Shown: positions 8,261 to 60,825 of the stretch, one piece after another
Layout of the letters: each line of letters starts with the position of its first letter
How positions within the stretch are numbered: position 1 is the first letter of the stretch
Assembly (NCBI GenBank): GCA_002724315.1
Contig: PBOJ01000102.1
Location: 10,925 to 74,924, forward strand
Reading direction: 5' to 3'
DNA: 64,000 bases
Source: Planctomycetaceae bacterium
Lineage (GTDB): Bacteria > Planctomycetota > Planctomycetia > Planctomycetales > Planctomycetaceae
The notes under the pieces: generated by a model
What the model was told of the DNA's origin: nothing
Databases searched by the model: none
What the model saw: the letters and a program-made list of their open reading frames with translations, nothing else
Position numbers and translations under genes: made by a program

Positions 8261-12676
<4,416 letters not shown>

Positions 12677-12766: not shown

Positions 12767-16579
<3,813 letters not shown>

Positions 16580-26118: not shown

Positions 26119-28548
26119 ATGTCCCGCTTGATCACCCTGACCCTGTTGCTGCTGGTCTCGGCGCGCGCTCCGGCCGCCGACAAGCCAGCCGAAATCGCCT
26201 ATTTCGAGAAACACGTCCGTCCGTTGCTGATACGCCGCTGTTACTCGTGCCACTCGGCACGCAGCAAGCCGATCCGTGGCGAGCTGAGTCTCGACACTCG
26301 ACGCGGCTGGCAAACCGGGGGAGAAAGCGGACCGGCAATCCGGCCAGGACGTCCCGACGACAGCCTGCTGATCCAGGCCATTCGCCATGGAGACGATGGC
26401 CTGAAGATGCCACCCAAGAAAAAACTGCCGATCGAGGAGATCCGGATCCTGGAACGCTGGGTTGCCCGCGGAGCGGTCGACCCCCGGACCGGTGATCCAA
26501 CTTCGGGCCGCAAACGTGGCGGGGCCGACCACTGGGCTTTCCAGCCCGTTCGGCCGGGCAAGGTTCCCATCGCCGCCAAGAGCCACACGAGCTGGATCCG
26601 CACACCAATTGACAGTTTTGTGCTCTCGCGGCTGTCCGACGCCGGCCTGGCCCCCTCACCACCGGCAGATCGCCGGGTGCTGCTCCGCCGGGTCACCTTC
26701 GACCTCACCGGACTGCCTCCCACACCCGAACAGGTGGCATCATTCCTGGCAGACAACCGGCCGGGGGCCTGGGGACGACTGGTCGACCGGCTACTGGGCA
26801 GCCCCCACTACGGTGCTCGCTGGGGCCGGCACTGGCTCGACGTCGCCCGCTACGCCGATTCGAACGGGCTAGACGAAAACGTTGCCCACGGCAACGCCTG
26901 GCGGTACCGAGACTGGGTGATCGACTCACTGAACGCCGACCGTCCGTTTGATTCCTTCGTGAGAGATCAACTGGCCGGGGACCTGGGACCAGGGCGGTCC
27001 AGAGAATCTGAGCAGCAGCGACACCGGCGAATGATTGCCACCGGGTTCCTGTCACTGGGCCCCAAGGTGCTGGCCGAGGTCGATGCCAAGAAGATGGAGA
27101 TGGACATCGTCGACGAACAGGTCGACACCGTCGGCCGGGCCTTCATGGGCCTCACGCTTGGATGTGCACGGTGCCATGACCACAAGTTCGACCCGGTCTC
27201 CACTCGCGACTACTACGCCCTGGCCGGGGTGTTCCAGAGCACCCGAACGATGGAGCACTTCAACAAGGTGGCCCGCTGGTGGGAGAACCCCATCGCCACC
27301 GCTGCCGACCAGCAGCGGCTCGAGACGCACAAGACACGGATCGCCGAAAAGAAAGCCGCAATCGACGCGATCGTCGAGGCGGCCACCAAGGTGGTCGGCG
27401 ACGCCCCTTCCACCGGAGACAAGGGGAAACCGAAGCCGGGCAACATCGAGAAGCAATTCTCAGACGAAACCCGCACTACGCTCAAGCGTCTCCGCCAGGA
27501 ACTCGAGACGCTGCGGGGAGCCACCCCGGAACTGCCCACCGCAATGGGAGTCACCGACGGCACGGTGACCAACCTGGCCGTCCACATCCGCGGGAGCCAC
27601 CTGGACCTGGGCGAAACGGTACCGCGAGGTGTCCCCGAAGTGATTGCCGGCCCCGGCGCGAAACCGTTCCCGGCCAAGCAGAGCGGTCGGCGGGAACTGG
27701 CCGACTGGCTGACCCGGCCGGACAATCCTCTGACGGCCCGCGTCTTCGTCAATCGTCTCTGGCGGTGGCACTTCGGCCGCGGACTGGTCGTCTCAACTGA
27801 CAACTTCGGTCAACTGGGCCGACGCCCCAGCCACCCCCGGCTGCTCGACTTTCTCGCCGCCGAACTTGTCCGCGGAAACTGGTCGATCAAACGCCTGCAC
27901 CGACTGATCGTGCTCTCGGCCACCTACCGCATGCAGAGCAGTCCTCGGAAAGACGCCATGGCCGTCGACCCCGAAAACCGGCTCTGGTGGCGGAGTCCGC
28001 TGCGGCGACTCGAGGCCGAAGCCCTGCGGGACGCGATGCTGGCCGTCGCCGGACAACTCGACCCGCAGATGGGAGGTTCGCTGCTGCACGTGAAGAACCG
28101 GGGTTACTTCTTCGACCACACCTCAAAAGACGAGACCCGGTACAACGTGCCCCGTCGCTCGGTCTACCTGCCGGTCGTCCGCAATCATCTCTACGACGTC
28201 TTCACCCTGTTCGATTACACCGACGCCAGCGTGATGACCGGCGACCGTGCCAGCACCACCGTCGCTCCGCAGGCCCTGTTCCTGCTCAACAGCGATCTGG
28301 TCGAACAGGCCAGCCGCCGGCTGGCCCGGACGGTCCTGGCCAGCCAGGCCACCGATGACTCCGAACGAATTGACCGGCTCTGCGAGCACGTGCTTGGTCG
28401 CCCGGCCACCGCCTCGGACCTTCGCCGCTGCTCGAGATTCCTCGAACGGATCCGCGGAGCCCTGCCCGAGAACTCCCAGCCCACCGACGCCTGGTCGGCA
28501 CTTTGCCATGTGCTGCTGGCCAGCAATGAGTTCATCTACCTGAAGTGA
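26119..28548 (+). CDS. Secreted PSCyt1 (CxxCH) + PSCyt2 (DUF1549) + PSD1 (DUF1553) protein
   Basis: Signal peptide. CYSCH heme-c motif at residues 41-45. DUF1553 signature LGCARCHDHKFDP. 809 aa. Planctomycete-specific family. Confidence 0.85.
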   Translation: MSRLITLTLLLLVSARAPAADKPAEIAYFEKHVRPLLIRRCYSCHSARSKPIRGELSLDTRRGWQTGGESGPAIRPGRPDDSLLIQAIRHGDDGLKMPPKKKLPIEEIRILERWVARGAVDPRTGDPTSGRKRGGADHWAFQPVRPGKVPIAAKSHTSWIRTPIDSFVLSRLSDAGLAPSPPADRRVLLRRVTFDLTGLPPTPEQVASFLADNRPGAWGRLVDRLLGSPHYGARWGRHWLDVARYADSNGLDENVAHGNAWRYRDWVIDSLNADRPFDSFVRDQLAGDLGPGRSRESEQQRHRRMIATGFLSLGPKVLAEVDAKKMEMDIVDEQVDTVGRAFMGLTLGCARCHDHKFDPVSTRDYYALAGVFQSTRTMEHFNKVARWWENPIATAADQQRLETHKTRIAEKKAAIDAIVEAATKVVGDAPSTGDKGKPKPGNIEKQFSDETRTTLKRLRQELETLRGATPELPTAMGVTDGTVTNLAVHIRGSHLDLGETVPRGVPEVIAGPGAKPFPAKQSGRRELADWLTRPDNPLTARVFVNRLWRWHFGRGLVVSTDNFGQLGRRPSHPRLLDFLAAELVRGNWSIKRLHRLIVLSATYRMQSSPRKDAMAVDPENRLWWRSPLRRLEAEALRDAMLAVAGQLDPQMGGSLLHVKNRGYFFDHTSKDETRYNVPRRSVYLPVVRNHLYDVFTLFDYTDASVMTGDRASTTVAPQALFLLNSDLVEQASRRLARTVLASQATDDSERIDRLCEHVLGRPATASDLRRCSRFLERIRGALPENSQPTDAWSALCHVLLASNEFIYLK

Positions 28549-28569
28549 TCCACCGAAGTCGCATTCCAC

Positions 28570-29964
28570 ATGTTCACCCGCCGTCATCTCCTGCAGTCCT
28601 CGGCCGTCGGCTTCCCGATGCTGGCCCTGCGAAGCCTTCTCGAGGCCGACACCTTCGGCCAGGGACCGAACCCGCTTGCATCGCGCTTGGCCCATCACGC
28701 CCCGCGGGCCAAGCGGATCCTGTTTTTGTTCATGAAGGGAGGCCCCTCGCAGGTCGACACCTTCGACCACAAGCCCCGGCTGCAGAAGGACCACGGGAAG
28801 CCATTGCCCTTCGACAAGCCTCGGGTGCAATTCGCCGACACCGGCAAGCTCCTGGGCTCCCCCTGGACCTTCAGCCGGCACGGCGAGTGTGGCCTGCCCG
28901 TCAGCGAGTTGTTCCCCCACACCGCCCGCCACGCTGACGACCTCTGTGTGATCAACTCCGTCCACGGAACCAATGCCGCTCACGGCGGAGCCCTGCTGAA
29001 ACTGCATACCGGCAGCGACAACTTCGTCCGTCCGAGCATCGGATCGTGGGTCAGCTACGGACTGGGAACCGAAAACGGTGACCTGCCGGCGTTCGTCACC
29101 ATCTGCCCGACACTGGCTCACGGGGGAGTCAAAAACTGGGGCAGCGCATTTTTGCCCGCTCCCTTCCAGGGCACACCCATCGGCAATGCCAGCCTCTCGT
29201 CGGCCGATGCCCGCGTCCCCTACCTGGACAACCCGCGTCACTCGAGACAACTCCAGCGTCTCAAGCTCGACCTGCTGGGTCGATTCAACCGACAGCACCT
29301 CGACGACTTCGGCGAGGACGGGCGACTGGAGGCCAGGATCAACTCGTTCGAACTCGCCTTCCGCATGCAGGGAGAAATTCCCGGCATCCAGGACCTCTCA
29401 CAGGAATCCTCGGCAACACACAAGCTGTACGGACTCGACGAAAAGATCACCGAGGACTTCGGTCGACAGTGCCTGCTGGCCCGCAGGTTCCTGGAACGGG
29501 GTGTCCGATTTGTCCAGGTCACTCATAGCGACACCATGGTCCAGTGGGACCAGCACTCCAACCTGCTGAGTGGACACACCAAGAACGCCAAGGAGGTCGA
29601 TCGCCCGATTGGCGGACTGCTGAGCGATCTCAAGGCCCGTGGATTGCTCGAAGACACCCTGGTCTGGTGGGGTGGAGAATTCGGACGCACCCCGTGCGTG
29701 CAAGGGTCCAACGGCCGGGATCACAACCCGGACGGATTCACGATGTGGCTGGCCGGTGGCGGTGCAAAACCGGGACTCCGATACGGTTCGACCGACGAGT
29801 TCGGTTACTACGCCGCCGAGGACAAGGTCCATATCCACGACCTGCACGCCACCATCCTGCATCTGCTCGGACTCGACCACGAGCAGTTGACCTACCGCTA
29901 CGCTGGCCGCGATTTCCGCCTGACCGACGTCTACGGTGACGTGGTCCAGGACGTGATCGCCTGA
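28570..29964 (+). CDS. DUF1501 (sulfatase/alkaline-phosphatase-fold) Tat-signal protein, partner of preceding PSCyt/PSD1 gene
   Basis: [20 protein letters not shown] twin-arginine-like leader. DUF1501 blocks (…[18 protein letters not shown]…, …GGEFGRTP…, …[17 protein letters not shown]…). 22-nt gap after upstream gene. Confidence 0.85.
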
Positions 29965-30293
29965 ATCTCACTCCGCCTGATCGGAGCCGATGAGCCGGTT
30001 CTCGTCGTTCCGGAGCACCTCCACAGCCGTCGAGAGCCAGATCCGGATTTTCCGAGGGGACTTGGTGCCACTGCGGGCAAGAAATCGGGTTCCCCAGCGA
30101 ACACCCGGTACTGAAGCACTGTAATCCCACGAGTTCGGTCACGAAAAATCCGTGAATTCGTCACAATCTGCCCCAATTGACTGATCCCCAACCCCTTTGT
30201 TCTCGTTTTTACTTAGCAGGCTTACCTCTTTTACCCCATAGTGGGTTAGTGGGCTCGATCTCCTGTTGAGGGGTGGCCTGGCTGGAGTCGCTG

Positions 30294-30923
30294 ATGAGTT
30301 TCGACCTCTCCGGATTCTATTACCGATGTTTCGCCGAACCTGCACTACAACCTGCCGGCCTGGTGATCGCCATATTGGCGGTGTACTGGTCGTTGGTGAT
30401 GTTCGGCGCAGTCGACCTCGAGCTCCTCGACTGGAACTTCGAGATCAGCCTCGACGGCGACAGCGGAGCACTGGATTTCGGACTGGTCCCACTGCGGTAC
30501 CTCAATCTCGGCACCATTCCGGTCATGCTCTGGATGACCGTCTTCGGGTTCTCGGCCTGGATGCTTTCACTACTGATCCACTACGTCTGGGCTCCCGATC
30601 AGCCCGACGGGGTGGTGATTGCCGAGGCGTTTGGCCTGGCAACCCTGGCCACCAAGCTCGCCACCAATCCGTTTCGATCGGTCTTCGAGATCGTCGAACC
30701 CCATCGTCCCGATACACTGATCGGCCAAACCTGCACAATCTCCACGCTCACGGCCACAGACGCGAGCGGCGAGGCACATTTTTCCAGCGAGGGGGCACCG
30801 TTGATCCTCTCGGTTCGCACTTCAGACGGCGATCTGACCAAGGGGCAGACGGCCAAAATTATTGAATACAACCGGTCTGACAACACGTACATCGTGAGCG
30901 GCACAATTGGGGGAGACGAGTAA
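30294..30923 (+). CDS. NfeD/YqiJ-like inner-membrane protein (4 TM + C-terminal soluble beta domain), first gene of flotillin cassette
   Basis: ORF 30273(GTG)..30923; ATG at 30294. Hydrophobic N-terminal helices then C-terminal soluble segment (TCTISTLTATDASGEAHFSSEGAPLILSVRTSDGDLTKGQTAKIIEYNRSDNTYIVSG) resembling NfeD OB-fold. Stop TAA overlaps flotillin ATG (TAATG). Family assignment is inferred, not searched. Confidence 0.6.
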   Translation: MSFDLSGFYYRCFAEPALQPAGLVIAILAVYWSLVMFGAVDLELLDWNFEISLDGDSGALDFGLVPLRYLNLGTIPVMLWMTVFGFSAWMLSLLIHYVWAPDQPDGVVIAEAFGLATLATKLATNPFRSVFEIVEPHRPDTLIGQTCTISTLTATDASGEAHFSSEGAPLILSVRTSDGDLTKGQTAKIIEYNRSDNTYIVSGTIGGDE

Positions 30924-33079
30924 TGGGTTACGTGGAAATTGCACTCTATGGCATCGGTGGATTGGTCGCGCTTGCGATCGTCTCCTTCTTCATTCTCAGT
31001 GCCTTCTACCGCAAGCCAGGACCTGAGGAGGCGATTGTTCGGACCGGCGTCGGCGGACTGAAGGTCCAGACCGGCAAGGGGATGATCATCGTCCCGGTCG
31101 CCCACTCGGCCGACAAAATGGACCTCTCGGTCAAGCGGATCGAGATCGCACGTGAAGGCGAAGACGGTCTGATTTGCCAGGACAACATCCGGGCCGACAT
31201 CCGGGTGGCGTTCTACGTCCGGGTCAACAACCAGCAGAGCGACATCATGCAGGTCGCCGAGATGCTCAACCCGAAACGAGCCTCGGAGATCAACCAGCTC
31301 CGCGAACTCTTCGAAGCCAAGTTCTCCGAAGCACTCAAGACCGTCGGCAAACAGTTCGACTTCGTCAGTCTCTACACCGACCGCGACAACTTCCGTGAAC
31401 AGATCCTCAACGTGATCGGAACCGACCTCAACGGTTATCGGCTCGACAACTGCCACATCGATTACCTCGAGCAGACTCCCGTGGAGAGTCTCAACCCGCA
31501 GAACATCCTGGACGCCGAAGGGATCAAGAAGATCACCGAGTTGACAACCCAGGAGAACATGAAGCGGAATTCCTTCGAGGTCGAAGAATCCAAGGTCATC
31601 AAGCAGCAGAACGTCGACCGTGACCAGGCGTTGTATGAACTCGAACGACAACGGGTCGATGCCGAGGAGAAGCAGAAGCGGGAGATCGCCGAGATCACTG
31701 CGAGGAACCAGGCGGCTGCCGCCCAGGTCCAGGAAGAGGAGCGTCAGCGGGCCGAGTCGGCTCGGATCGTTGCCGAGGAACAGATCCAGGTGGCCGAACA
31801 GAACAAGGACCGCCAGATCATCGTGGCCCTGCGCAACAAGGAACGGACCGACCAGGTCGAGATCGAGCGGGTCGAGAAGGACCGGATGCTGGAAGTGACC
31901 GAACGGGAACGCGTGGTCGGTCTTGCCGACATCGAGAAGGACAAGGCGATCGAGATCGAGAAGCGGAATATCCAGGAAGTGATCCGCGAACGCGTGATGG
32001 TCGAACGCGGCGTGGTCGAAGAACAGGAAAACATCAAGAACACCCAGGAAATCATGACCGCCGACCGGGCCAAGACCGTCGCGGTCACCATGGCCGAGAA
32101 AGACGCCCAGGAGTCGTTGGTCATCCAGGTCAAGGCGGCCGAGGCCGAGAAGCAGTCGGCCGAATTCGGTGCCCAGCAGGTGGTCATCGAGGCCGACGCC
32201 CAGCGGGATGCGGCCGAACGCGAAATGCAGGCCACCAAGATGTTGGCCGAAGCCAAGACCGCCGACAAGGCGGCCGAGGGACTCGCCGAAGCCCAGGTCA
32301 CCATGGCCAAGGCCGATGCCCTGGAGAAAGAGGGCACCGCTGAAGCGTCGGTGATCCAGAGGAAGGGTGAGGCCGAGGCGGTCGTGATCGACCAGACCGG
32401 CAGTGCCGAGGCCACCATCGTGCAGAAGAAGGCTGTCGCCGAAGCCAAGGGCGACGAGGCCATGGCGGTCGCGACCGAGAAGGTCGGAACGGCCGAAGCC
32501 AGCGTGATGGGACTGAAATTCAACGCCGAAGCGACCGGCATCAAGGAGAAAGCCGAGTCAATGAAACTGTTCCATGCCGCGGGCAAGGAACACGAGGAAT
32601 TCAAGCTGCAACTCAACAAGGACAAGGACATCGAGATCGCCGCGATCGACGCACAGCAAAATATCGCGGAGGCCCAGGCCGAGATCGTCGGCGAGGCCTT
32701 GAAGAACTCGACCATCGACATCGTCGGCGGCGAGACAACCTTCTTCGACAAGATCGTCGACTCGATCAAGGCCGGAAAGAGTGTCGACCGGTTCGTCGGC
32801 AACAGCGACGTGCTCACCGACGTCAAGAACACGTTCTTCAACGGCGACAACGAGTACTTCGCCGCCCAGCTGAGACAGTTCACCGGCCAGTTCGGTGTCA
32901 GTTTCGAAGACGTCAAGGACCTCTCGGTCGCAGCACTGGTTGGACGGCTGATCACGATGGCCGACAACGAGGACGACAAGTCGCGGCTGGAGGACCTGTT
33001 GCGAGTCTTCCGCGGGGCGGGAGTCGCCAGCCAGAAGGTCGCTACGCTGGGCCTGACCGACGGGAAGCAAGCCAAGTAA
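30923..33079 (+). CDS. Flotillin-like SPFH/Band-7 protein (YqiK/FloT-like) with about 330-aa A/E/K-rich coiled-coil extension
   Basis: N-terminal TM anchor (IALYGIGGLVALAIVSFFIL) then SPFH core (EAIVRTGVGGLKVQTGKGMIIVPVAHSADKMDLSVKRIEIAREGEDGLICQDNIRADIRVAFYVRV). Long EA-rich heptad-like region typical of flotillins but extended (718 aa). Confidence 0.88.
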   Translation: MGYVEIALYGIGGLVALAIVSFFILSAFYRKPGPEEAIVRTGVGGLKVQTGKGMIIVPVAHSADKMDLSVKRIEIAREGEDGLICQDNIRADIRVAFYVRVNNQQSDIMQVAEMLNPKRASEINQLRELFEAKFSEALKTVGKQFDFVSLYTDRDNFREQILNVIGTDLNGYRLDNCHIDYLEQTPVESLNPQNILDAEGIKKITELTTQENMKRNSFEVEESKVIKQQNVDRDQALYELERQRVDAEEKQKREIAEITARNQAAAAQVQEEERQRAESARIVAEEQIQVAEQNKDRQIIVALRNKERTDQVEIERVEKDRMLEVTERERVVGLADIEKDKAIEIEKRNIQEVIRERVMVERGVVEEQENIKNTQEIMTADRAKTVAVTMAEKDAQESLVIQVKAAEAEKQSAEFGAQQVVIEADAQRDAAEREMQATKMLAEAKTADKAAEGLAEAQVTMAKADALEKEGTAEASVIQRKGEAEAVVIDQTGSAEATIVQKKAVAEAKGDEAMAVATEKVGTAEASVMGLKFNAEATGIKEKAESMKLFHAAGKEHEEFKLQLNKDKDIEIAAIDAQQNIAEAQAEIVGEALKNSTIDIVGGETTFFDKIVDSIKAGKSVDRFVGNSDVLTDVKNTFFNGDNEYFAAQLRQFTGQFGVSFEDVKDLSVAALVGRLITMADNEDDKSRLEDLLRVFRGAGVASQKVATLGLTDGKQAK

Positions 33080-33115
33080 TTGGCACCCGGCAACCATTCG
33101 CCAGGAATTCCCGTG

Positions 33116-36100
33116 ATGGCCGACGAAGAACGTCTCCAGAACGAGGCCGCAGCGGCTGACTCAACAGCCGATGCCGCCTCCCAGACCACCGACAACGCCC
33201 CCGGTGCACCCGCAACCGGTGACGGGCCGCAGTTGGAGAGTGGGACGTACGAGATCATTCGGGGACGGCTGGTCTCCCACGGCCAGGACCTCCGCAAGAG
33301 GCTTGGCACGCTCAACGACGCCCGCAAGGACGCATTCGGGTCGATCGAGACGACGTTGCTGGGAACCGAGAGGATCACGACCGAGCACAACTGCGTGCCG
33401 CGGGACATGGTCTCGATCGGCTCGCACCTGCTGTTTGGCTACAACGTCACCTTCGGGTTGAAGTCCGAGATCAACATCGAGGACGTTTTCGCCGTGCACG
33501 GTTTTGCCGACGGGAAGTTCTCCCCCGGCACGCTGGACCTGATTTCCGACGACCGATTCCGCAAGGACTTCGAAGACGTCTACAAGTACTACAAGCACGC
33601 CACCTTCGCGAGGTTCTTCCAGACCGACGTGTACCTGTTCATGGTCTTCCGCGTCGGTGCCTCGGTCAACGACATCAAGTCGTTCAAGTGGGCGATCTCC
33701 GACGACGGCCTGACCTACATCGACAACCGCTCGGACCACGAGGTGGTCTTTCCGCCGCAGCACGGATTCGAGTGGACACTGGCCACGCGGGACATGCAGC
33801 AGTCCGGCACGCACCCTCATATCTCGATTGCCGACCGTGTCTTCGTCGAGACTGTCGGCGGGGACCTGACGGTCAAGATCGAGGACAACACCGCCAGTGG
33901 CGAGGGCATCTACTCCGAACCCGTCGAACACGTCGACCAGACCCTCGACGACGCACGCGTCGACTACTCGATCCTGGGCAACATCATCCTGATGAAGGTT
34001 CGGCCCTACCAGGAGAATGCCGACCGGTACCTGGTCTACAACGAGAAGGCCCAACAGGTGGTGCGACTCGACTCGATCGAGCACGCCTGCGTCATGCTGC
34101 CCGACGACCACGGACTGATCTTCTCCAACGGCTACTACCTGCAGACCGGCGAAAACAAGACCTTCGAGAGCGATCTGCAGGACATGCAGTTCGCCGGCCG
34201 CATCGACTCGCCCAACGGCGAAGACTTCCTCTACGTCTTCCACAATCGCGATTCGGGCGTCTACATCCTGCTCAACTACAACCTGATCGAGCAGAAGGTC
34301 GAGACCCCCCTGATCTGTCACGGCTTCTCGTTGTTCGACGGCGGCGAACTGGTCTGCTTCCGCTCGCAGGAAGCCGCGGCCAAACACCATGCGATCCAGG
34401 TCTGGCAAACCCCCTACACGGGAGAGGGTTACGAGCCACCGGGGCAGGAGGAGACGTTCCTGCACAAGGTGGGCAACAAGGACATCGTGCGGGGCATGGC
34501 CGAGTGCCACGAGGTGCTCGGACTGATCAACAAGGAGGACACCTACGCCAACCTCTACGTCGACATCGTCAAGCAGTCGACCGACATCCTCGACAGCTTC
34601 TTCTGGATCACCAACGAGGAAACCGGCAGCCTGGCCACCCCGCTCGGGGAGATCCGGAACGCAGCCGCCTCTGCGATCGACGAGTTCGAGAAGGTGGTGC
34701 GGGTCAAGCGGAACACCGCCAGCGAGACGTCGCGGGTCGAGGGTGAGACTCGCGAGATCATCGCCGACGTCAGCCGGCGGCGGTTCGAAACGATCCAGGA
34801 CTTCGTCGACTCCCTCGCCGCACTCCGACGCATCCGCGGTGACATCATCACCCTGCGAGACCTCCGCTACGTCGACACCGCACTGGTCGACCAACTCGAG
34901 CAGGAAGTCTCCGAGCAGAATGACACCCTGTCGCACCGCTGTGTCGAGTTCCTGCTCCGACCCGAGTCGCTGGCTCCCTATGAGAAGAAGGTGGCCGAGG
35001 AACTCGCCGGGATCGAGGAGCTGACGAAGGTCAGTGACGCCAAGACACTGCAGGAAGCCATCGACCAGAGCGCTGCTGACCTCGAGATGCTCATCGACAT
35101 CGTCAGCAACCTCGAGATCGACGACGCCACTCAGCGAACCGCGATCATCGACAACATCTCCAACATCTTCTCGACGGTCAACCAGGCCCGTGCCGCGCTC
35201 AAGAAGAAGTCCCGCGACCTGATGTCGGTCGAGGGTGTTGCCGAATTCAACTCGCAGCTGAAACTGCTCGATCAGTCGATCGTCAACTACCTCGATGTCT
35301 GCGATTCGCCGGAGAAATGCGACGAGTTCCTCACCAAGGTGATGATCGGTATCGAAGAACTCGAAGGCAGATTCGCCGAGTTCGACGAGTTCGTCGTGCA
35401 GTTGTCCGAGAAACGTGACGAGGTCTACAACGCGTTCGAATCCCGGAAGCTGCAACTGGTCGAAGCCCGCAACAAGCGGGCCAATGCCCTGATGTCAGCG
35501 GCCGAGCGAATCCTGGGCGGAATCCAGAGCCGAGTCGGAACCCTCGAAAGCGTCAACGACATCAACGGCTATTTCGCCTCGGACCTGATGATCGACAAGG
35601 TCCGCGACATCGTCGACCAGCTCAAGGAACTCGAGGACAGCGTCAAGGTCGACGACATCCAGAGTCGACTGAAGACGATCCGCGAGGACGCCGTCCGTCA
35701 ACTCAAGGATCGCCAGGACCTGTTCGTCGGCGGTGACAACGTCATCAAGATGGGCAACCATCACTTCTCGGTCAACGTCCAGCAACTGGATCTGACGACC
35801 GTCTTCCGTGATGACGAAATGGCCCTGCACCTGACCGGCACCGACTTCTTCGAACCGATCGGAGACGAGGACTTCCTGGCAACCAGGGAGTTGTGGCGAC
35901 AGGACATCGTCAGCGAAACGGCCGAGGTGTACCGGGGCGAGTACCTGGCATACCGGCTGTTCCAGGGCCTGGGAAGCGGGGAACTGCCGGAACGGGACGA
36001 GGTGTTGGCGATGGAGCCCGACGCCCGACTGGCGGTGGTGCAGGAGTTCATGGGGCCACGGTATGCCGAGAGCTACGTCAAGGGCGTTCACGACCGTGAC

Positions 36101-38776
36101 GCCAGCCAGATCCTCGGTGCCCTGCTCCAGATGAACTCGCGGATCGGACTGCTCCGTTACCACGCTCGCTCGCGAGCGATGGCCAAGGTCTTCTGGTCCC
36201 GCTTCGGGGACAAACCGTCCAAGGACCGTATCGCCGCACAGCTCCGGGGTTTCGGCAACGTCAGCCGCGCCTTTCCCGGCACCGGCGCACAGGCCGCCTA
36301 CGTCGCCTCGCTGACCGGGATGCTCGAACAGTTCGTCACCGACGAGGGGCTGTTCCACAACAACCTCGTCGGGGAAGCCGCCGAGTATCTCTTCGCCGAA
36401 CTCACCGACCCCGACTCGGGATTCGTCATCAGTCGCACCGCAGCCGAATTGCACGATTCGTTCACCGCCCATCTCAAGAGTTCCGGGCACGACAGCCAGT
36501 TCACCCAGAGCCTGTCCGGGGTCAAGAAGGACTCGGCCGGCGGACTCCACGTGGCCCGGGATTGGGTCGAGGCCTTTCTCGAAAGCCGTGCCGACGCCGA
36601 GACGGCCGACTACATCGACGAGGTGGCGGTCTTGCTGCTGGAGGGATCCATCGATCGCAAGGCCGTCGTCGACGCTTCGGCCGTCGCCGAGCTCGACGAC
36701 CTAGCCGGTGACCACTCCGTCATCGACGGCAGCCACTACCACCTGCACTACAACCGCTTCATGCAGAGGCTGGCACGCTTCCACCAGAATCGCGTGCCGC
36801 GGTTCCTGGCCTACCAGGAGCAGAAGAAAGAACTGGTCGAAACGGCGCGGGAGGGAATGCGACTCGAGGAGTTCCGGCCCCGCGTCCTGACCTCGTTCGT
36901 ACGCAACAAGCTGATCGACCAGGTCTATCTCCCTGTCGTCGGTGACAACCTGGCCAAACAGATGGGTGTTGTCGGCGAGGAGAAGCGAACCGACCTGATG
37001 GGGCTGCTGCTGCTGGTCTCACCGCCAGGTTACGGCAAAACCACGTTGATGGAGTACATCGCCAACCGGCTGGGCATCATCTTCATGAAGATCAACGGCC
37101 CGGCCATCGGTCACCACGTCACCTCGCTGGACCCATCCGAGGCACCCAATGCAGCCGCCCGCGAGGAAGTCGAGAAACTGAACCTCGCCCTGGAAATGGG
37201 CGACAACGTGATGATCTATCTCGACGACATCCAGCACACCAACCCGGAGTTCCTCCAGAAGTTCATCTCGCTGTGCGACGCCCAGCGAAAGATCGAGGGT
37301 GTCTACAAGGGCCGCACACGCACCTACGACCTGCGGGGACGCAAGGTCTGCGTCGTGATGGCCGGCAACCCGTACACCGAGAGCGGTGAAAAGTTCCAGA
37401 TCCCCGACATGCTCACCAACCGGGCCGACATCTACAACCTCGGCGAGATGATCGGTGAGAGTGCCGAGGCGTTCGAGATGAGTTACCTCGAGAACTGCCT
37501 CACCTCCAATTCCGCCCTCAACCAGCTGGCCACCCGCAGCCAGGACGATGTCTACGCTGTGATCCGCATGGCCGAGGGCGAGACGCCCGACGGCATCGAA
37601 CTCGAAGGCAACTACTCGGCCGAAGAACTCTCCGAATTCGTCGTCGTGATGAAGAAGCTGATGCGGGTCCGCGACGTGATCCTGGCGGTCAATCGCGAGT
37701 ACATCCGCTCGGCGGCCATGTCCGATGACTACCGCACCGAGCCGGCCTTCAAGCTGCAGGGATCCTACCGCAACATGAACCGGATCGCCGAAAAGGTGGT
37801 CCCGATCATGAACGATGACGAACTCCAGTCGCTGATCGTCTCCAACTACGAGAACGACTCACAGACGCTGACCTCCGATACCGAGGCCAACCTGCTGAAG
37901 TTCAAGGAACTGATCAACGCCCTGACCGAGGACGAAGTCGCCCGGTGGGAGACAATCAAGAAGACCTTCCAGCAGAACGTGAAGATGCGAGGTGTCGGCG
38001 CCGACGACAAGGTCGGACAGGTGGTCGTCCAGTTGAGCAGCTTCAGCGAGGGACTCGAGTCGATACGTGACGCGATGGCCGACGGACTTGAACAACTCGC
38101 CGCCGGAAACGGCGAACCGGCTGCAGTGGTTGAGGACCAGGAGCAGACGGACCCAGAACCCGCCGCCCTCGAGCAGCTGCTCACCGGACAACTCGACGGC
38201 GTCACCTCCGGGCTGGACCAGATTCGCCAGGCCATGGCCGATGGACTCGACCGACTCGTTTCGAGCGATTCCTCCGACGCCGCGTCGCCGGCCGCCAACG
38301 CGGACATCGCCGGACACGTTGCCGGTCTCCGGGAAAGTCTCGATGCCATTCGCGACGCGTTGTCCGAAGCGGCCGCCCGCCCGGTCACCGTTGCCGCGGC
38401 CGAACCGGAAGCGGAAGAACAGCCGGACGAAACCGAAGACGAATCATCCCAGACGGACGTTCTGCCGGTGACGGTCGTCGAACCCGACGACCCCGAGGAC
38501 GAAGACGGAGAAGAAGAACTCGAGCGACTTGCCGGTGCGAACACGATCACCGTCGTCAACAAGATCCCGCCCAGCCTGCTGAAGGTACTCCGGCAGCAGT
38601 TTCGTCTGATGGAAGGCTGGATGGAACCACTGTTGAAGAGCAGCCAGACGCAACAGAAGGAGCTCAGGGAGCTCCGCGAGCATCTCGACACGACCCTCGA
38701 TGACTACGAACGCCTGATCGGGCAAGTCTCGGGCAGAAAATCCAAGCGAGGCCGAGCCCGTCGGGCCGACAGCTAG
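33116..38776 (+). CDS. Giant (about 1,886 aa) multidomain protein: unassigned N-terminal globular region, long alpha-helical middle, MoxR/AAA_5-like ATPase module, repeat-bearing acidic C-terminal tail
   Basis: Continuous ORF 33080(TTG)..38776; ATG at 33116 preferred. Walker A LLLLVSPPGYGKTTL (about nt 37009-37053). Walker B NVMIYLDDIQH (about nt 37198-37233). AAA_5-like VCVVMAGNPYTESGEKFQIPDMLTNRADIYNL. Only 36 nt after flotillin stop. Confidence 0.8.
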   Translation: MADEERLQNEAAAADSTADAASQTTDNAPGAPATGDGPQLESGTYEIIRGRLVSHGQDLRKRLGTLNDARKDAFGSIETTLLGTERITTEHNCVPRDMVSIGSHLLFGYNVTFGLKSEINIEDVFAVHGFADGKFSPGTLDLISDDRFRKDFEDVYKYYKHATFARFFQTDVYLFMVFRVGASVNDIKSFKWAISDDGLTYIDNRSDHEVVFPPQHGFEWTLATRDMQQSGTHPHISIADRVFVETVGGDLTVKIEDNTASGEGIYSEPVEHVDQTLDDARVDYSILGNIILMKVRPYQENADRYLVYNEKAQQVVRLDSIEHACVMLPDDHGLIFSNGYYLQTGENKTFESDLQDMQFAGRIDSPNGEDFLYVFHNRDSGVYILLNYNLIEQKVETPLICHGFSLFDGGELVCFRSQEAAAKHHAIQVWQTPYTGEGYEPPGQEETFLHKVGNKDIVRGMAECHEVLGLINKEDTYANLYVDIVKQSTDILDSFFWITNEETGSLATPLGEIRNAAASAIDEFEKVVRVKRNTASETSRVEGETREIIADVSRRRFETIQDFVDSLAALRRIRGDIITLRDLRYVDTALVDQLEQEVSEQNDTLSHRCVEFLLRPESLAPYEKKVAEELAGIEELTKVSDAKTLQEAIDQSAADLEMLIDIVSNLEIDDATQRTAIIDNISNIFSTVNQARAALKKKSRDLMSVEGVAEFNSQLKLLDQSIVNYLDVCDSPEKCDEFLTKVMIGIEELEGRFAEFDEFVVQLSEKRDEVYNAFESRKLQLVEARNKRANALMSAAERILGGIQSRVGTLESVNDINGYFASDLMIDKVRDIVDQLKELEDSVKVDDIQSRLKTIREDAVRQLKDRQDLFVGGDNVIKMGNHHFSVNVQQLDLTTVFRDDEMALHLTGTDFFEPIGDEDFLATRELWRQDIVSETAEVYRGEYLAYRLFQGLGSGELPERDEVLAMEPDARLAVVQEFMGPRYAESYVKGVHDRDASQILGALLQMNSRIGLLRYHARSRAMAKVFWSRFGDKPSKDRIAAQLRGFGNVSRAFPGTGAQAAYVASLTGMLEQFVTDEGLFHNNLVGEAAEYLFAELTDPDSGFVISRTAAELHDSFTAHLKSSGHDSQFTQSLSGVKKDSAGGLHVARDWVEAFLESRADAETADYIDEVAVLLLEGSIDRKAVVDASAVAELDDLAGDHSVIDGSHYHLHYNRFMQRLARFHQNRVPRFLAYQEQKKELVETAREGMRLEEFRPRVLTSFVRNKLIDQVYLPVVGDNLAKQMGVVGEEKRTDLMGLLLLVSPPGYGKTTLMEYIANRLGIIFMKINGPAIGHHVTSLDPSEAPNAAAREEVEKLNLALEMGDNVMIYLDDIQHTNPEFLQKFISLCDAQRKIEGVYKGRTRTYDLRGRKVCVVMAGNPYTESGEKFQIPDMLTNRADIYNLGEMIGESAEAFEMSYLENCLTSNSALNQLATRSQDDVYAVIRMAEGETPDGIELEGNYSAEELSEFVVVMKKLMRVRDVILAVNREYIRSAAMSDDYRTEPAFKLQGSYRNMNRIAEKVVPIMNDDELQSLIVSNYENDSQTLTSDTEANLLKFKELINALTEDEVARWETIKKTFQQNVKMRGVGADDKVGQVVVQLSSFSEGLESIRDAMADGLEQLAAGNGEPAAVVEDQEQTDPEPAALEQLLTGQLDGVTSGLDQIRQAMADGLDRLVSSDSSDAASPAANADIAGHVAGLRESLDAIRDALSEAAARPVTVAAAEPEAEEQPDETEDESSQTDVLPVTVVEPDDPEDEDGEEELERLAGANTITVVNKIPPSLLKVLRQQFRLMEGWMEPLLKSSQTQQKELRELREHLDTTLDDYERLIGQVSGRKSKRGRARRADS

Positions 38777-58231: not shown

Positions 58232-58404
58232 GACAGACAGTCTCCCACAGAGACCGACCCCGCTCAAGCGGTTCCCGAGCCATCCCCGATCGGACCACTC
58301 CAAACCCACAGTTGAGTGCTCCGTGCGAACACCGATATAGTGGAGACCGCGGCGGGTCCCCAACGGCCCGTCCACACCACTTCGAATCCACCAGAGAACA
58401 GTTC

Positions 58405-60825
58405 GTGCGCGTTTTGCCGACCATCCTGCTCGGACTGCTGATGACTCCGGCCGTCACCGCCGCCCCCCCGCGGCCGGCCCGCTCACTGGAAGTGGCCCCC
58501 AATCCCATCGTGCTGGGCGGCACCAACCGCGTTCAACAGATACAGGTTACCGCCAGCGGACCCGACGGCCGCCAATTCGACGTCACCCACCGGGCCACGC
58601 TGGAGATCACCGGCACCGAGCGAGCCGCCGTCGATGGCAGCACCGTCCGGGGCGTCTCCGACGGTGACGCCTCACTGAAGGTTTCCTACGGCGGCCGCGT
58701 GGTCGAGATTCCCATCCGTGTCCGCAACCGGACCACTTTCCCACCGGTGCACTTCAACAACGACATCATGCCGATCCTCTCGAAGCTCGGCTGCAACAGT
58801 GGAGGTTGCCACGGCAAACAGAGTGGCCAGAACGGGTTCAAACTGAGCGTCTTCGGGTTCGACCCCAGGGCCGACTTCAACGCACTGGTCAAGGAAGCCC
58901 GGGGCCGCCGCGTGTCCCTGGCCTCTCCCGGCGGCAGCCTGCTGGTGGCCAAGGCCAGCAACGCCATTGCCCACGGTGGTGGAGCCCGCACCAGCACCGG
59001 ATCACCGGACCACTTCCTGCTCTCCCAGTGGGTCGCCCAGGGGGCTCCCTGGGGCAGCGACCGTGCCCCGCAAGTCCGCTCGATCCGCGTGTCTCCGGCC
59101 CAACGCGTTCTGCGGGCCACCGATGAACAGCAACTGCTGGTCACGGCGGTTTACTCCGACGGCACAACCCGTGACGTCACCGGTGCGTCCGAGTACACCA
59201 GCAACGCGACACTGGTGGCCGACATCGAAGAGGCGGGCCACGTGCACACCGGACGGGTGCCCGGCGAAGCCGCGATCACGATCAACTACATGGGTCACGT
59301 CACCGCCTCACGGATCACTGTGCCCCGCGACGGGGGACCCGAAAACTACCCCAAGCTGCCGACCAACAACCGCATCGACGAGCTGGTCTGGGCCAAGCTC
59401 CGACGGATGGGCATTCTGCCCTCCGGACTCGCCTCCGACGCGGTCTTTCTGCGTCGCCTTCATCTCGACACGCTCGGCGGACTGCCGTCGCCGGCCGAGG
59501 TCCGTGCCTTCGCCGCCGACAAGCGATCCGACCGCCGTCAACGTGCCATCAACGACGTGTTGGGTCGGCCTGAACTGGTCGACTACTGGACCCAGAAGTG
59601 GGGCGACGTGCTGCTGGCCGACCGGGAAGTGCTGGGCGAGCGAGGAGCGTTCGAGTTCCATCGCTGGCTTCGAGTGCAACTGGCAACCAACCGCCCCTAC
59701 GACGAATGGGTCCGGGAGCTGCTGACGGCCACGGGCAACTCAGGCCGCTACGGTCCGGTCAACTTCTTCCGGGCCGCGCGAACCCCCAACGAACTGACGC
59801 GCAGCGTCAGCCAGGCATTCCTGGGCATTCGCATGGATTGTGCCCAATGCCATCACCACCCGTTCGAGAAGTGGGGGCAGGACGATTTCTACGGCATGGC
59901 GGGTTTCTTCAACGGGCTGAAGCACACCTCCCTCGGACCCGGTCGCGAACTGGTCTACCACGGCGGCTACCAGCCGACACGGATCCCGCTGGTCAACCAA
60001 CTGGTCCTGCCTCGTCCACCGGGAGGCCGCGGCATCGAGAACTTCGGCGAGTCCGATCCGCGGGTGCGGTTGGCCGAATGGGTCACCCGCCCGGACAACC
60101 CTTACTTCGCTCGCCTGGTGGCCAATCGGATCTGGAAACAGTTCCTCGGACGCGGACTGGTCGAACCCGAAGACGACTTCCGGTCCACCAACCCGCCAAC
60201 CAACCCCGCCCTGCTGGACCACCTTGCCGAACAACTCGTCGCCGACCGCTTCGACCTCAGAAAGTTGATGCGGCACATCCTCTCGTCGCGGGTCTACCAG
60301 CTCTCGAGCATTCCCAACCAGACCAATGCCGATGACGAACAGAGCTACTCACACCACCTGGTCAAGAGACTTCCGGCGGCGGTACTGCTGGATGCGATCA
60401 GCGAGGTGACCGGTACCCCCGAGTCGTTCACCGGGATGCCGCGGGGCACCCGCGCCATCCAGCTGTGGGACAACCGGTTGCCGAGCTACTTCCTGGACAC
60501 CTTCGGCCGGTCCGAGCGTCAGTCCCCGTGCGAGTGCGGCAGTTCCACCGAGCCGACGATGGCCCAGACGCTGCACCTGATGAATGCCCCGGAGATCGAC
60601 GCCAAGATCACCGCCGCCGGCAGCCGGATCGACCGCTTGACCGCCGGCAAGGCCACCCCCCGACAGATCGTCAACGAGCTCTGCCTGTCGGCGCTCGGCC
60701 GACCCCCCAACGACCGCGAGGTCCGCGCTGCCGAGAAGCTATTTGCCGGGAGTCCACCACGCCAGGCTGCCGAAGATTTTCTGTGGGCACTGTTGAACTC
60801 CTACGACTTCCTGTTTGTCCACTGA
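58405..60825 (+). CDS. Secreted PSCyt-like (Cx4CH) + Big_2 + PSCyt2 (DUF1549) + PSD1 (DUF1553) protein (GTG start)
   Basis: GTG 58405 gives signal peptide (M)RVLPTILLGLLMTPAVTAA. LGCNSGGCHG. MDCAQCHHHPFEKW. Upstream ATG 58312 would overlap the divergent DUF1501 gene. Confidence 0.85.
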   Translation: MRVLPTILLGLLMTPAVTAAPPRPARSLEVAPNPIVLGGTNRVQQIQVTASGPDGRQFDVTHRATLEITGTERAAVDGSTVRGVSDGDASLKVSYGGRVVEIPIRVRNRTTFPPVHFNNDIMPILSKLGCNSGGCHGKQSGQNGFKLSVFGFDPRADFNALVKEARGRRVSLASPGGSLLVAKASNAIAHGGGARTSTGSPDHFLLSQWVAQGAPWGSDRAPQVRSIRVSPAQRVLRATDEQQLLVTAVYSDGTTRDVTGASEYTSNATLVADIEEAGHVHTGRVPGEAAITINYMGHVTASRITVPRDGGPENYPKLPTNNRIDELVWAKLRRMGILPSGLASDAVFLRRLHLDTLGGLPSPAEVRAFAADKRSDRRQRAINDVLGRPELVDYWTQKWGDVLLADREVLGERGAFEFHRWLRVQLATNRPYDEWVRELLTATGNSGRYGPVNFFRAARTPNELTRSVSQAFLGIRMDCAQCHHHPFEKWGQDDFYGMAGFFNGLKHTSLGPGRELVYHGGYQPTRIPLVNQLVLPRPPGGRGIENFGESDPRVRLAEWVTRPDNPYFARLVANRIWKQFLGRGLVEPEDDFRSTNPPTNPALLDHLAEQLVADRFDLRKLMRHILSSRVYQLSSIPNQTNADDEQSYSHHLVKRLPAAVLLDAISEVTGTPESFTGMPRGTRAIQLWDNRLPSYFLDTFGRSERQSPCECGSSTEPTMAQTLHLMNAPEIDAKITAAGSRIDRLTAGKATPRQIVNELCLSALGRPPNDREVRAAEKLFAGSPPRQAAEDFLWALLNSYDFLFVH

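Follow-up and report, generated by a model that had tools for sequence, protein, structure and literature searches.

Results

A three-gene module with a giant ATPase gene

The 64-kb stretch of DNA analysed here (the window) carries rpoB, rpoC and fusA and belongs to the core chromosome. Three tightly packed genes within it encode an NfeD/YqiJ-like small membrane protein, a flotillin-like SPFH protein and a giant DUF3686-DUF7902-AAA+ protein (Table 1). The NfeD-like stop codon overlaps the ATG of the flotillin-like gene by 1 nt (TAATG), and a gap of 36 nt separates the flotillin-like gene from the giant gene. Scanning around the operon for promoters and terminators gave nothing above chance.

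The giant protein is encoded by a single ORF spanning 33080 (TTG) to 38776. A preliminary description of this DNA had called the start ambiguous between this TTG and ATG 33116, and the ambiguity is real in the sequence. In two close relatives (L001 and L002), the ATG is kept together with an AGGA 9 nt upstream of it, whereas neither the TTG nor a GTG at 33113 is. This pattern of conservation favours ATG 33116 as the likely start codon; counted from there, 1,886 aa are encoded.

Table 1. Genes of the module and predicted parts of the giant protein; nucleotide positions are those of the window.
Feature	Residues (aa)	Position (nt)	Strand	Basis or remarks
First gene of the module, for a small NfeD/YqiJ-like membrane protein of 216 aa		30273..30923	+	2-3 hydrophobic segments
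Flotillin-like SPFH protein, 718 aa		30923..33079	+	N-terminal membrane anchor, Band_7, extended helical region rich in E/A/K/Q
Giant DUF3686-DUF7902-AAA+ protein		33116..38776	+	1,886 aa plus stop; favoured start ATG 33116
Disordered N-terminal 39 residues, poorly conserved		33116..33232	+	pLDDT 31-42
All-beta propeller-like domain, core of DUF3686	80-431	33353..34408	+	AF2, Foldseek, Pfam
Helical rod, helices of 20-58 residues	448-869	34457..35722	+	Contains DUF7902 (nt 34967-35215)
Orphan region: beta unit and all-alpha domain	877-914; 941-1176	35744..36643	+	AF2, conservation
AAA+ alpha/beta core	1297-1445	37004..37450	+	Pfam AAA 28.5 bits, AF2, Foldseek
Putative pre-sensor-1 beta-hairpin	1393-1404	37292-37327	+	AF2 model, before the sensor-1 strand
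Helical lid region	1450-1625	37463..37990	+	AF2 helices, pLDDT 84-95
Lineage-specific C-terminal tail	1632-1886	38009..38773	+	Occupancy 0.2-0.4 in the diverse alignment

An intact member of a widespread family

Pfam assigned DUF3686 (PF12458) to aa 58-496 of the giant protein (E 1.6e-191, covering the full profile, 1-448 of 448) and DUF7902 (PF25472) to aa 618-700 (E 1e-27), while its AAA match at aa 1298-1379 was weak. Both DUF3686 and DUF7902 are domains of unknown function in Pfam, but to call the approximately 1,300 aa before the ATPase 'unassigned', as had been done, was an overstatement. The same architecture was found in all of the best 120 of at least 5,500 homologue matches. Among 29 diverse family members (29-51% identity), every one carried both DUF3686 and DUF7902, and AAA or AAA_5 was present in 28.

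Colinear full-length homologues of about 1,600-1,900 aa occur in at least 581 species genomes, closed chromosomes such as those of Stieleria marina, Symmachiella dynata and Gimesia aquarii among them. Relatives align across residues 1-1885, with an alignment occupancy of approximately 1.0 for aa 40-1640 in 65 diverse sequences. The family motifs SPPGYGKTT, YLDDIQH, MAGNPYTESG and IPDMLxNRAD, conserved among these 65 sequences, are all found in the window protein, and identity between phyla is 51-67%. The ORF is thus an intact orthologue of the DUF3686-DUF7902-AAA+ family. This family is widespread, and the window gene adds no new kind of system.

A computational description of both the operon and the architecture was given by Ravi et al. 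(mSystems 2024; PMC11237479), where the family appears as the 'Beta-propeller + coiled-coil + AAA+ ATPase' of YqiJ/YuaF-Band-7/flotillin operons. The window protein has the same domain order and is an orthologue, and the window holds the 'abbreviated' three-gene form, which is widespread according to that study. In the literature, this comparative-genomics paper on the PSP system was the only description of the operon that we found. Searches for DUF3686, PF12458, DUF7902, PF25472 and 'DNA repair ATPase' combined with flotillin returned no match, PMC2636767, PMC9239133 and PMC13086221 held nothing bearing on the family, and neither experimental studies nor solved structures were found for it. 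Beyond PMC11237479, the present analysis contributes domain limits from AF2, an orphan alpha domain and its motif, the Walker B DD, a predicted pre-sensor-1 hairpin, a lineage-specific tail and statistics on gene context. The preliminary description had missed that both the family and the operon were already catalogued.

A propeller-like domain, a helical rod and an orphan domain precede the ATPase

In the AlphaFold2 (AF2) models, the giant protein begins with a disordered N-terminus, followed by one helix and then the beta domain. Conservation of the N-terminal 39 residues is low (0.38 in close relatives and 0.16 in diverse ones, with an occupancy of 0.53). About 27 strands were modelled in aa 80-431 at pLDDT 80-90, which can be grouped as about seven sets of four. 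The single-domain Foldseek neighbours of this region were nearly all 6- to 7-bladed beta-propellers or propeller domains, including Cdh1, Vps18, CyRPA, KLHDC3, EED, Cdc20 and YncE (E 7e-5 to 1e-3 over approximately 400 columns); these matches are weak, with TM scores of only 0.26-0.38. No blade repeats were detected at the sequence level by HHalign self-comparison. One residue of the domain, E300, is invariant in the 65 sequences. Ravi et al. likewise assign a beta-propeller to this N-terminal domain (PMC11237479). The modelling thus supports a folded, beta-rich N-terminal domain that may be a propeller, much as had been proposed from the sequence.

The middle of the protein had been described as charged, helical and heptad-like. 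It is nearly all helical in the AF2 model and acidic (18-21 D+E per 100 aa), but the heptad-like character was not borne out, since no window qualified as a canonical coiled coil in a strict heptad scan.

A second domain, at aa 872-1255, had escaped the preliminary description. Its all-alpha part was modelled at pLDDT 84-93, and the region contains seven invariant residues (E934, R940, Y987, G990, H992, D995 and R1020) and two near-invariant ones (D993 and E1169), with the motif YxKGVHDxDA. An 18-sequence profile of aa 872-1255 found no relative in the PDB or Pfam. The VHDxD motif prompted a search for an HD-phosphohydrolase-like signature in the domain, for which no support was found. Pfam and NCBIfam scans of the inter-domain regions and the tail returned only noise.

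A single divergent AAA+ module with conserved nucleotide-binding residues

The P-loop reads SPPGYGKTT (aa 1302-1310, nt 37019-37045) and Walker B reads VMIYLDD (aa 1365-1371, nt 37208-37228); both were found where they had been placed, 60 residues apart inside one AAA+ fold. With 1,301 of the 1,886 residues (69%) before the P-loop, the earlier estimate that some 70% of the protein precedes the motor was accurate. The AAA+ fold was modelled at pLDDT 80-95, so that the structure prediction proposed earlier as a check gives both a folded N-terminal beta domain and an AAA+ fold around the Walker motifs. Foldseek matched the core to NorQ, CbbQ, MCM, Lon, RuvB and p97 (E 2e-6 to 7e-5). In the PDB, searches with the giant protein and with a 65-sequence profile gave only P-loop-level matches to classic AAA proteins and RuvB, and no solved relative.

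N1418 is the candidate sensor-1 residue, R1436 the candidate Arg finger and R1552, in LQGSYRNMN, the candidate sensor 2. Conservation of K1308, D1370, D1371 and N1418 reached at least 90% in the 65 diverse sequences, in which R1436 and R1552 are invariant. In essentially all family members, Walker B reads DD instead of DE; hydrolysis may therefore be slow and switch-like, and not that of a processive remodeller. On inspection of the sequence, aromatic residues are absent from the loop at the pore-loop-1 position, GHHVTSLDPSEAPN, and this speaks against substrate threading of the classic kind. At the position of the helix-2 insert, the AF2 model has only an irregular loop (aa 1332-1345). The giant protein has one AAA module, which is divergent but retains the conserved nucleotide-binding residues.

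The tail contains three repeats of the GL(E/D)xIRxAMADGLxxL type, followed by an acidic, disordered linker (approximately aa 1756-1817, pLDDT < 50), and is closed by a basic terminal helix; AF2 models a long helix at 1819-1885.

In structure, the AAA+ module comes closest, if only weakly, to the MoxR-type proteins NorQ (9qh4/9qh8, E 2e-6) and CbbQ. The putative hairpin before the sensor-1 strand in the AF2 model would be a further MoxR likeness. The motif of MoxR proteins is ATQNPxExEG...LPEAQLDRF, and VVMAGNPxxESG...IPDMLxNR of the giant ATPase resembles it. However, as had been pointed out from the sequence, the protein is unlike the compact MoxR proteins: its single C-terminal AAA+ module sits in a far larger polypeptide, six times the size of NorQ, CbbQ or RavA. 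Its Walker B DD departs from the MoxR pattern hhhhDE. The window protein has no Pfam AAA_3 match, and its AAA_5 score is 20.1 bits against a cut-off of 22 bits, while AAA_5 was matched at E ≤ 0.01 by 28 of 29 relatives. No VWA/MIDAS partner gene is conserved in 80 loci, and annotated loci lack a VWA gene; the partner is instead an SPFH protein. Some family members are labelled 'MoxR-like ATPase' by JGI.

The operon is conserved across phyla

The assignment of the upstream gene as flotillin-like is supported by a Band_7 match (E 2.2e-8) on the N-terminal 259 aa of its product, which has a TM segment at aa 1-31. Band_7 was matched by 27 of 29 orthologues. Orthologues in Streptomyces and Pseudomonas are annotated 'flotillin family protein' or 'SPFH domain-containing protein'. 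Band_7 goes undetected when the whole protein is scanned with Pfam, presumably an effect of composition bias. The 216-aa protein gave sub-threshold Pfam matches to YqiJ_N (E 0.11) and NfeD (E 0.21) in the right order, and the record of a Hymenobacter counterpart names it a DUF1449 family protein. Both proteins have TM segments, whereas the giant protein has none. Neither gave a match in the PDB by phmmer or profile searches.

Enough upstream DNA to be counted was available for 61 loci, from Planctomycetota, Verrucomicrobiota, Bacteroidota, Desulfobacterota, Calditrichia and Hydrogenedentota. In 58 of them the gene immediately before the giant gene, on the same strand, is flotillin-like; loci L050, L051 and L069 lack an adjacent flotillin gene. 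A flotillin-like gene also precedes the giant gene in Streptomyces, Deinococcus, Pseudomonas (pQBR103), Proteus and Hymenobacter, where identity of the giant protein is 36-53%. By tblastn, 50 of 60 loci have an NfeD-like orthologue upstream of their flotillin gene; clustering gave 55 loci. Apart from these two genes, no neighbour is conserved in more than 13 of 80 loci, and unrelated small genes (DUF3800, DMP19-like) are now and then inserted in the operon. The giant gene is thus the last of a conserved module of NfeD/YqiJ-like, flotillin-like SPFH and giant ATPase genes.

In four Bacteroidota loci and in Hymenobacter, CesT_Tir_1 and PspA_IM30 genes lie directly upstream, which reproduces the CesT/Tir-PspA extension of PMC11237479, and pQBR103 has a YjfI-PspA...SPFH-ATPase operon. 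PspA is missing from most loci, including the window, where tblastn with Bacteroidota PspA queries found no PspA within the 64 kb.

Discussion

Because the giant gene nearly always lies behind a flotillin gene, its product probably acts on membrane microdomains and not on DNA. The reading we consider most likely, with a probability of roughly 55%, is that it is an ATP-driven remodeller of flotillin/NfeD assemblies (and, where encoded, PspA assemblies) at the membrane. The giant protein would form oligomers by means of its AAA+ module on the cytoplasmic side of the membrane. Its propeller and rod would dock on flotillin/NfeD assemblies, and also on PspA polymers where these are co-encoded. ATP would then be spent to assemble, disassemble or remodel these assemblies, or to hand over or extract clients, which would make the ATPase part of an envelope-stress or membrane-maintenance system.

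Several known systems resemble such a remodeller in part. SPFH cages pair with AAA+ machines, as in HflK/C-FtsH, and NfeD-type partners are common within SPFH operons. In HflK/C-FtsH and in the prohibitin-m-AAA protease pair, an SPFH membrane scaffold is likewise coupled, genetically or physically, to an AAA+ ATPase. The giant ATPase differs in having neither a protease domain nor a TM anchor, and its coupling to an SPFH protein is one of gene order. Furthermore, FtsH is a classic-clade AAA protein with aromatic pore loops, which the giant ATPase lacks. The likeness to Vps4/ESCRT-III comes from the lineages in which the AAA+ ATPase is encoded beside a PspA/ESCRT-III-superfamily polymer. This arrangement suggests ATP-driven polymer remodelling, an idea raised in PMC11237479, although, compared with Vps4, the giant ATPase has no MIT domain and is not a classic-clade AAA protein by its motifs. 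The FloA-NfeD system of S. aureus (Ukleja et al. 2024, PMC11222466) also pairs a flotillin with NfeD at the membrane, and its role in stabilising unfolded proteins is experimentally supported. S. aureus FloA-NfeD keeps hold of unfolded proteins explicitly without ATP (PMC11222466). A giant ATPase is absent from that system; the module in the window adds one. The unfolded proteins held by FloA-NfeD would be a plausible client pool for the giant ATPase module. Flotillin is known to build a membrane-attached cage (PMC11260169).

A bolder form of the proposal, which we put forward tentatively and regard as possible at best, is that bacterial flotillin microdomains have been missing an ATP-dependent partner and that the giant protein is this partner. 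It would form an AAA+ ring whose several long rod-and-propeller arms dock on a flotillin/NfeD cage, and on any PspA polymers, loading, unloading or dismantling these assemblies. The ring would be, for SPFH/ESCRT-III assemblies, what segregases of the Vps4 or p97 type are outside bacteria. The orphan alpha domain with its YxKGVHDxDA motif would serve in addition as a new module for catalysis or for sensing a ligand.

The strongest competitor, itself unlikely, is that the protein is no remodelling motor but an ATP-regulated scaffold, switch or enzyme at flotillin microdomains, in which the nucleotide state, with hydrolysis slowed by the Walker B DD, gates the propeller or rod, or else a site for catalysis or ligand binding in the orphan domain. 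The conserved Walker B DD and the pore-loop-1 position without an aromatic residue are consistent with this, as is an alpha domain (aa 941-1176) that is confidently folded, has invariant polar residues and has no known relatives. However, no catalytic family matched the orphan alpha domain, and the invariant arginines resembling an Arg finger and sensor 2 are expected of an ATP-hydrolysing ring.

Somewhat less probable still is a membrane-shaping or cytoskeleton-like mechanoenzyme (coat-, dynamin- or dynein-like) that bends, tethers or moves membranes with flotillin only as its anchor. The layout had reminded the authors of the preliminary description of large mechanoenzymes, a comparison that holds only for the order of the parts: dynein and midasin have six concatenated AAA modules, the giant protein just one. 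Dynein Foldseek matches had a TM of approximately 0.1 or lower, multi-domain matches at a TM of approximately 0.1 represent no real global similarity, and those of the helical region were generic. Nor is the family confined to bacteria with internal membranes.

That the module belongs to an anti-phage or conflict system, with the NTPase sensing infection and the membrane partner as the effector, appears very unlikely. Large NTPases with propeller-type sensor domains are known from conflict systems (PMC7159879), and the occasional insertion of DUF3800 and DMP19-like genes in the operon could be read in the same way. PADLOC profiles gave very weak matches to mad8 (E 6e-4) and IetA (E 3e-3), limited to the P-loop region, but no significant match for any of the three proteins, and for the flotillin-like and NfeD-like proteins they gave none at all. 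Phage genomes yielded no match, and among 72,556 plasmid records there were just 13, mainly megaplasmids or chromids. The window itself is core chromosome. The 51-67% identity across phyla is unusually high and unlike that of fast-evolving defence genes, and the partners (flotillin, NfeD and PspA) are of housekeeping type.

A role as a DNA repair ATPase, as given in the NCBI annotation and the Pfam description of DUF3686, is highly improbable. It draws on two names, 'DNA repair ATPase' and 'ATPase involved in DNA repair', both inherited, and on a RuvB_N match confined to the P-loop (23 bits against a threshold of 27 bits). DNA-binding, nuclease and SMC/Rad50-type domains were not found, SMC_N and AAA_23 included, and the ATPase forms one uninterrupted AAA+ fold, unlike an ABC head, which a coiled coil divides. 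With SbcC, Rad50 and SMC it shares no more than its large size, its helical content and a name that it inherited. The neighbours are membrane proteins and never repair genes, no nuclease partner gene is among the conserved ones, and our literature search yielded no link between the family and repair. The name 'DNA repair ATPase' is probably a historical misnomer. Finally, an assembly or fusion artefact can be dismissed given the colinear full-length homologues in at least 581 genomes, closed chromosomes among them, and the occupancy of approximately 1.0 over aa 40-1640.

The function of bacterial flotillins is still under debate. Encoded nearly always right after flotillin, the giant ATPase is an obvious candidate for the energy-consuming component of the system, and some lineages also tie it to PspA membrane repair. 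The presence of the family in the tractable Proteus mirabilis, Pseudomonas fluorescens SBW25 (pQBR103), Streptomyces and Hymenobacter makes the hypothesis of an ATP-driven remodeller directly testable. Dropping the 'DNA repair ATPase' label would halt the spread of a misleading annotation.

Architecture and conservation of the giant protein

The reading frame of the giant gene is uninterrupted from a TTG codon at 33080 to the TAG stop at 38774-38776 on the + strand, and encodes 1,886 residues when counted from ATG 33116. A preliminary description, made from the sequence alone, had proposed a beta-rich N-terminal domain, a helical middle and a C-terminal ATPase, and Pfam and AlphaFold2 bear out this layout in its essentials (see table). 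The N-terminal peptides quoted there are found in the translation, both nucleotide-binding motifs lie inside the ranges given, and some 69% of the residues come before the ATPase, as against the 'about 70%' estimated. The roughly 1,300 residues called unassigned include two Pfam families that had been overlooked, DUF3686 and DUF7902. RuvB_N, AAA_5 and AAA_22 gave sub-threshold Pfam matches over the same stretch as AAA, and an NCBIfam scan of the protein added nothing beyond Pfam. Two AlphaFold2 predictions from 88-sequence alignments covered residues 1-1200 (mean pLDDT 79) and 1151-1886 (mean pLDDT 75). No membrane-spanning segment was found in the protein, the highest 19-residue Kyte-Doolittle mean being 1.15.

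Features of the giant protein, its gene neighbourhood and related loci
Feature	Residues	Nucleotides	Strand	Evidence
NfeD/YqiJ-like gene		30273-30923	+	
Flotillin-like SPFH gene		30923-33079	+	
Giant ATPase gene	1-1886	33116-38776	+	
P-loop SPPGYGKTT	1302-1310	37019-37045	+	
Walker B strand VMIYLDD	1365-1371	37208-37228	+	
DUF3686	58-496			Pfam E 1.6e-191
DUF7902	618-700			Pfam E 1e-27
AAA, partial match	1298-1379			Pfam 28.5 bits
Disordered	1-40			AlphaFold2
Single helix	42-74			AlphaFold2
All-beta domain, about 27 strands	80-431			AlphaFold2, pLDDT 80-90
Helices, 20-58 residues each	448-869			AlphaFold2
Small beta unit	877-914			AlphaFold2
All-alpha domain	941-1176			AlphaFold2, pLDDT 84-93
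AAA+ alpha/beta core	1297-1445			AlphaFold2, pLDDT 80-95
Helical lid	1450-1625			AlphaFold2
Three further helices	1632-1755			AlphaFold2
Acidic disordered linker	about 1756-1817			AlphaFold2
Long basic terminal helix	1819-1885			AlphaFold2
rpoB		12767-16579	-	
rpoC		8261-12676	-	
fusA		5062-7284	-	
Inserted gene, locus L055		8675-9838		
Inserted gene, locus L067		8612-9241		
Inserted genes, loci L062, L079, L057, L076				

A word-indexed search returned at least 5,500 homologues, the best 120 of which all have 1,669-1,899 residues and a single common Pfam architecture. When one genome per species was scanned, at least 581 genomes encoded a relative. A search of 1.84 billion cluster representatives with residues 1-520 gave 777 matching representatives at E <= 1e-3; DUF3686 is N-terminal in nearly all of the 150 matches listed, with intact members of about 1,550-2,040 residues. 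The architecture proved fixed among diverse members: all 29 carried both DUF3686 and DUF7902, AAA was present in 28 and so was AAA_5. The nearest relatives align across residues 1-1885, and the gene lies on closed chromosomes of Symmachiella dynata, Gimesia aquarii and Stieleria marina. A chance or artefactual ORF is ruled out by these full-length homologues, closed chromosomes and end-to-end alignments. One protein from a eukaryote set (P0097, eukprot g33011.t1) is 65% identical to the giant protein of the window and most likely reflects contamination from bacteria, not a homologue of eukaryotic origin.

Conservation was measured in 65 full-length relatives (29-51% identity). Occupancy is about 1.0 over residues 40-1640 and falls to 0.2-0.4 in a lineage-specific tail past about residue 1650. 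E300 is invariant, and we take it to be the 'single completely conserved E' of the Pfam DUF3686 entry. The tail (aa 1632-1886, nt 38009-38773) carries three GL(E/D)xIRxAMADGLxxL repeats (starting at residues 1646, 1699 and 1737), followed by the acidic linker and then the basic helix; the Bacteroidota proteins of the shorter type (about 1,640-1,660 residues) lack it.

The predicted beta-rich folded domain is as had been anticipated. In Foldseek searches against the PDB, beta-propellers and propeller domains made up nearly all of its single-domain matches of about 400 columns (Cdh1, Vps18, CyRPA, KLHDC3, EED, Cdc20, YncE and the prolyl oligopeptidase propeller), at E 7e-5 to 1e-3, 8-11% identity and low target-normalised TM scores of 0.26-0.38. 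The strand count is compatible with about seven four-stranded blades, and HHalign self-comparison found no sequence-level repeats in the domain. We regard residues 80-431 as propeller-like, in line with Ravi et al. (mSystems 2024, PMC11237479), though not as a proven propeller. The middle region is helical, as suggested, but the proposed heptads were not confirmed: no part of it qualified as a canonical coiled coil in a strict heptad test. A 'rod of helical bundles' fits better than a 'coiled-coil stalk', and the likeness drawn to coiled-coil mechanoenzymes is an analogy only.

An 18-sequence profile of residues 872-1255 (window 35729-36880), comprising the small beta unit and the confident all-alpha domain, found no Pfam or PDB relative. 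Across the family, E934, R940, Y987, G990, H992, D995 and R1020 of this orphan region are invariant and D993, E1169 and H1200 nearly so, with the motif YxKGVHDxDA. The region resembles a functional site more than a spacer. It had not been expected from the preliminary description.

Foldseek confirmed the AAA+ fold of the modelled ATPase (NorQ, CbbQ (MoxR type), MCM, Lon, RuvB and p97; E 2e-6 to 7e-5), with scores insufficient to fix the clade. AlphaFold2 places a beta-hairpin at residues 1393-1404, after helix 3 and before the sensor-1 strand; a hairpin in this place is typical of pre-sensor-1-hairpin AAA+ clades. Past the P-loop, no solved structure in the PDB was related by sequence, even with a 65-sequence profile. 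P1304, G1305, G1307, R1436 and R1552 are invariant in the 65 relatives, while K1308, T1309, D1370, D1371, I1372, Q1373, H1374 and N1418 are kept in at least 90%. Since these include both D1370 and D1371, the family Walker B reads YLDDIQH, with DD and not DE (aa 1365-1374, nt 37208-37237). No aromatic residue occurs in the loop that takes the pore-loop-1 position (aa 1332-1345), GHHVTSLDPSEAPN. Each of these two features is unusual for a substrate-threading AAA+ ATPase.

Translation start

The start had been left ambiguous between TTG 33080 and ATG 33116, and the frame offers four candidates (TTG 33080, GTG 33113, ATG 33116 and TTG 33233). In L001 and L002, the two closest loci, TTG 33080 is replaced by ACG and CCG, respectively, and GTG 33113 is GCG in L002; ATG 33116, with AGGA 9 bases upstream, is retained in both. 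Conservation is poor over residues 1-39, where disorder is predicted, the conserved part starts at LESGTYEI (aa 40), and most relatives have only 5-20 residues ahead of that position. The loss of the TTG and GTG codons, the retention of ATG and AGGA, and this short lead favour ATG 33116 as the start. Long ORFs lie opposite the giant and flotillin genes (33161-35455, -, 764 aa; 31744-33408, -, 554 aa) and are probably not genes but shadow ORFs that arise from high-GC coding sequence.

The flotillin/NfeD operon and its setting

The flotillin-like product has an N-terminal membrane anchor, and its first 259 residues match Band_7/SPFH above threshold (E 2.2e-8). The full-length protein gave no Pfam or NCBIfam match, probably owing to composition-bias filtering of its long E/A/K/Q-rich helix; such filtering could leave flotillin-like genes of this kind unannotated. 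Band_7 was matched in 27 of 29 flotillin orthologues. The preceding gene encodes 216 residues with two or three hydrophobic segments and sub-threshold YqiJ_N and NfeD matches in the correct order. Its TAA stop shares one base with the flotillin ATG (TAATG, 30921-30925), which suggests translational coupling.

Gene context was surveyed at 80 loci from different species. Where at least 2.6 kb of upstream DNA was available, a same-strand flotillin orthologue lay directly upstream of the giant gene in 58 of 61 loci. Ahead of the flotillin gene, tblastn placed an NfeD-like gene in 50 of 60 loci, and clustering did so in 55. No further neighbour family was conserved in more than 13 of the 80 loci. 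Planctomycetota, Verrucomicrobiota, Bacteroidota, Desulfobacterota, Calditrichia and Hydrogenedentota are represented among these loci (giant protein 51-67% identical). With giant proteins that are 36-53% identical, the same arrangement is also present in Streptomyces, Deinococcus, Hymenobacter, Proteus mirabilis and the Pseudomonas fluorescens SBW25 megaplasmid pQBR103. Immediately upstream, CesT_Tir_1 and PspA/IM30 genes are found in four Bacteroidota loci and Hymenobacter. Linkage of the giant gene to flotillin/NfeD is thus tight and conserved very widely, and linkage to PspA recurs. On pQBR103 (NC_009444.1 84437-97641; locus L081), the module is the tail of a YjfI-PspA-rhomboid protease-DUF2491-DUF350-DUF1190-glutathionylspermidine synthase operon, which links it to the polyamine/PspA gene set of Ravi et al. 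At three loci (L050, L051 and L069) no flotillin gene was found within the flanking DNA covered, and the homologues there may represent either second paralogues or some variant system; in L069 a TPR protein is encoded upstream. In Pontibacter and some other Bacteroidota, small unrelated genes lie between the flotillin and giant ATPase genes (see table); one encodes a DUF3800 protein, another is DMP19-like, and the rest have no assignment.

Exactly the same operon has already been described, with CesT/Tir-PspA and phospholipase D as occasional members and widely distributed abbreviated forms (Ravi et al. 2024, PMC11237479), and no experimental study or solved structure of the family was found in the literature or PDB. 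As an orthologue, the window gene thus belongs to a family that is bioinformatically catalogued but uncharacterised.

The window is core planctomycete chromosome. It contains three PSCyt2/PSD1 genes (one within 26119-29964, at 26119-28548; 51292-54177; 58312-60825), the first followed by a DUF1501 gene (28570-29964), a pair that is syntenic upstream of the module in L001 and L002. With rpoB, rpoC and fusA, these genes are planctomycete hallmarks on a core chromosome. The family had no match in phage genomes and only 13 plasmid or chromid records.

Possible function

AAA+ machines are known to partner SPFH cages, for example in HflK/C-FtsH. The giant protein would sit at the cytoplasmic membrane face and act on flotillin/NfeD assemblies, with PspA polymers as an additional target where PspA is present. 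It would probably work as an AAA+ oligomer, spending ATP to assemble, dismantle or remodel these assemblies, or to process clients. Flotillin forms a membrane-attached cage (PMC11260169), and FloA-NfeD of S. aureus holds unfolded proteins without ATP (PMC11222466), which would allow for an energy-dependent partner where a lineage encodes one. This background, together with the HflK/C-FtsH case, makes such a role plausible.

The DD Walker B and non-aromatic pore loop caution against a classic threading unfoldase, and they keep alive a model in which the orphan alpha domain is central and the protein serves as a switch, scaffold or enzyme. High conservation, a chromosomal setting and the absence of PADLOC matches make a role of the module in anti-phage defence unlikely. 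DNA repair finds no support beyond the inherited name 'DNA repair ATPase'. As a large, highly conserved and unstudied ATPase, the protein could make bacterial flotillin function testable.
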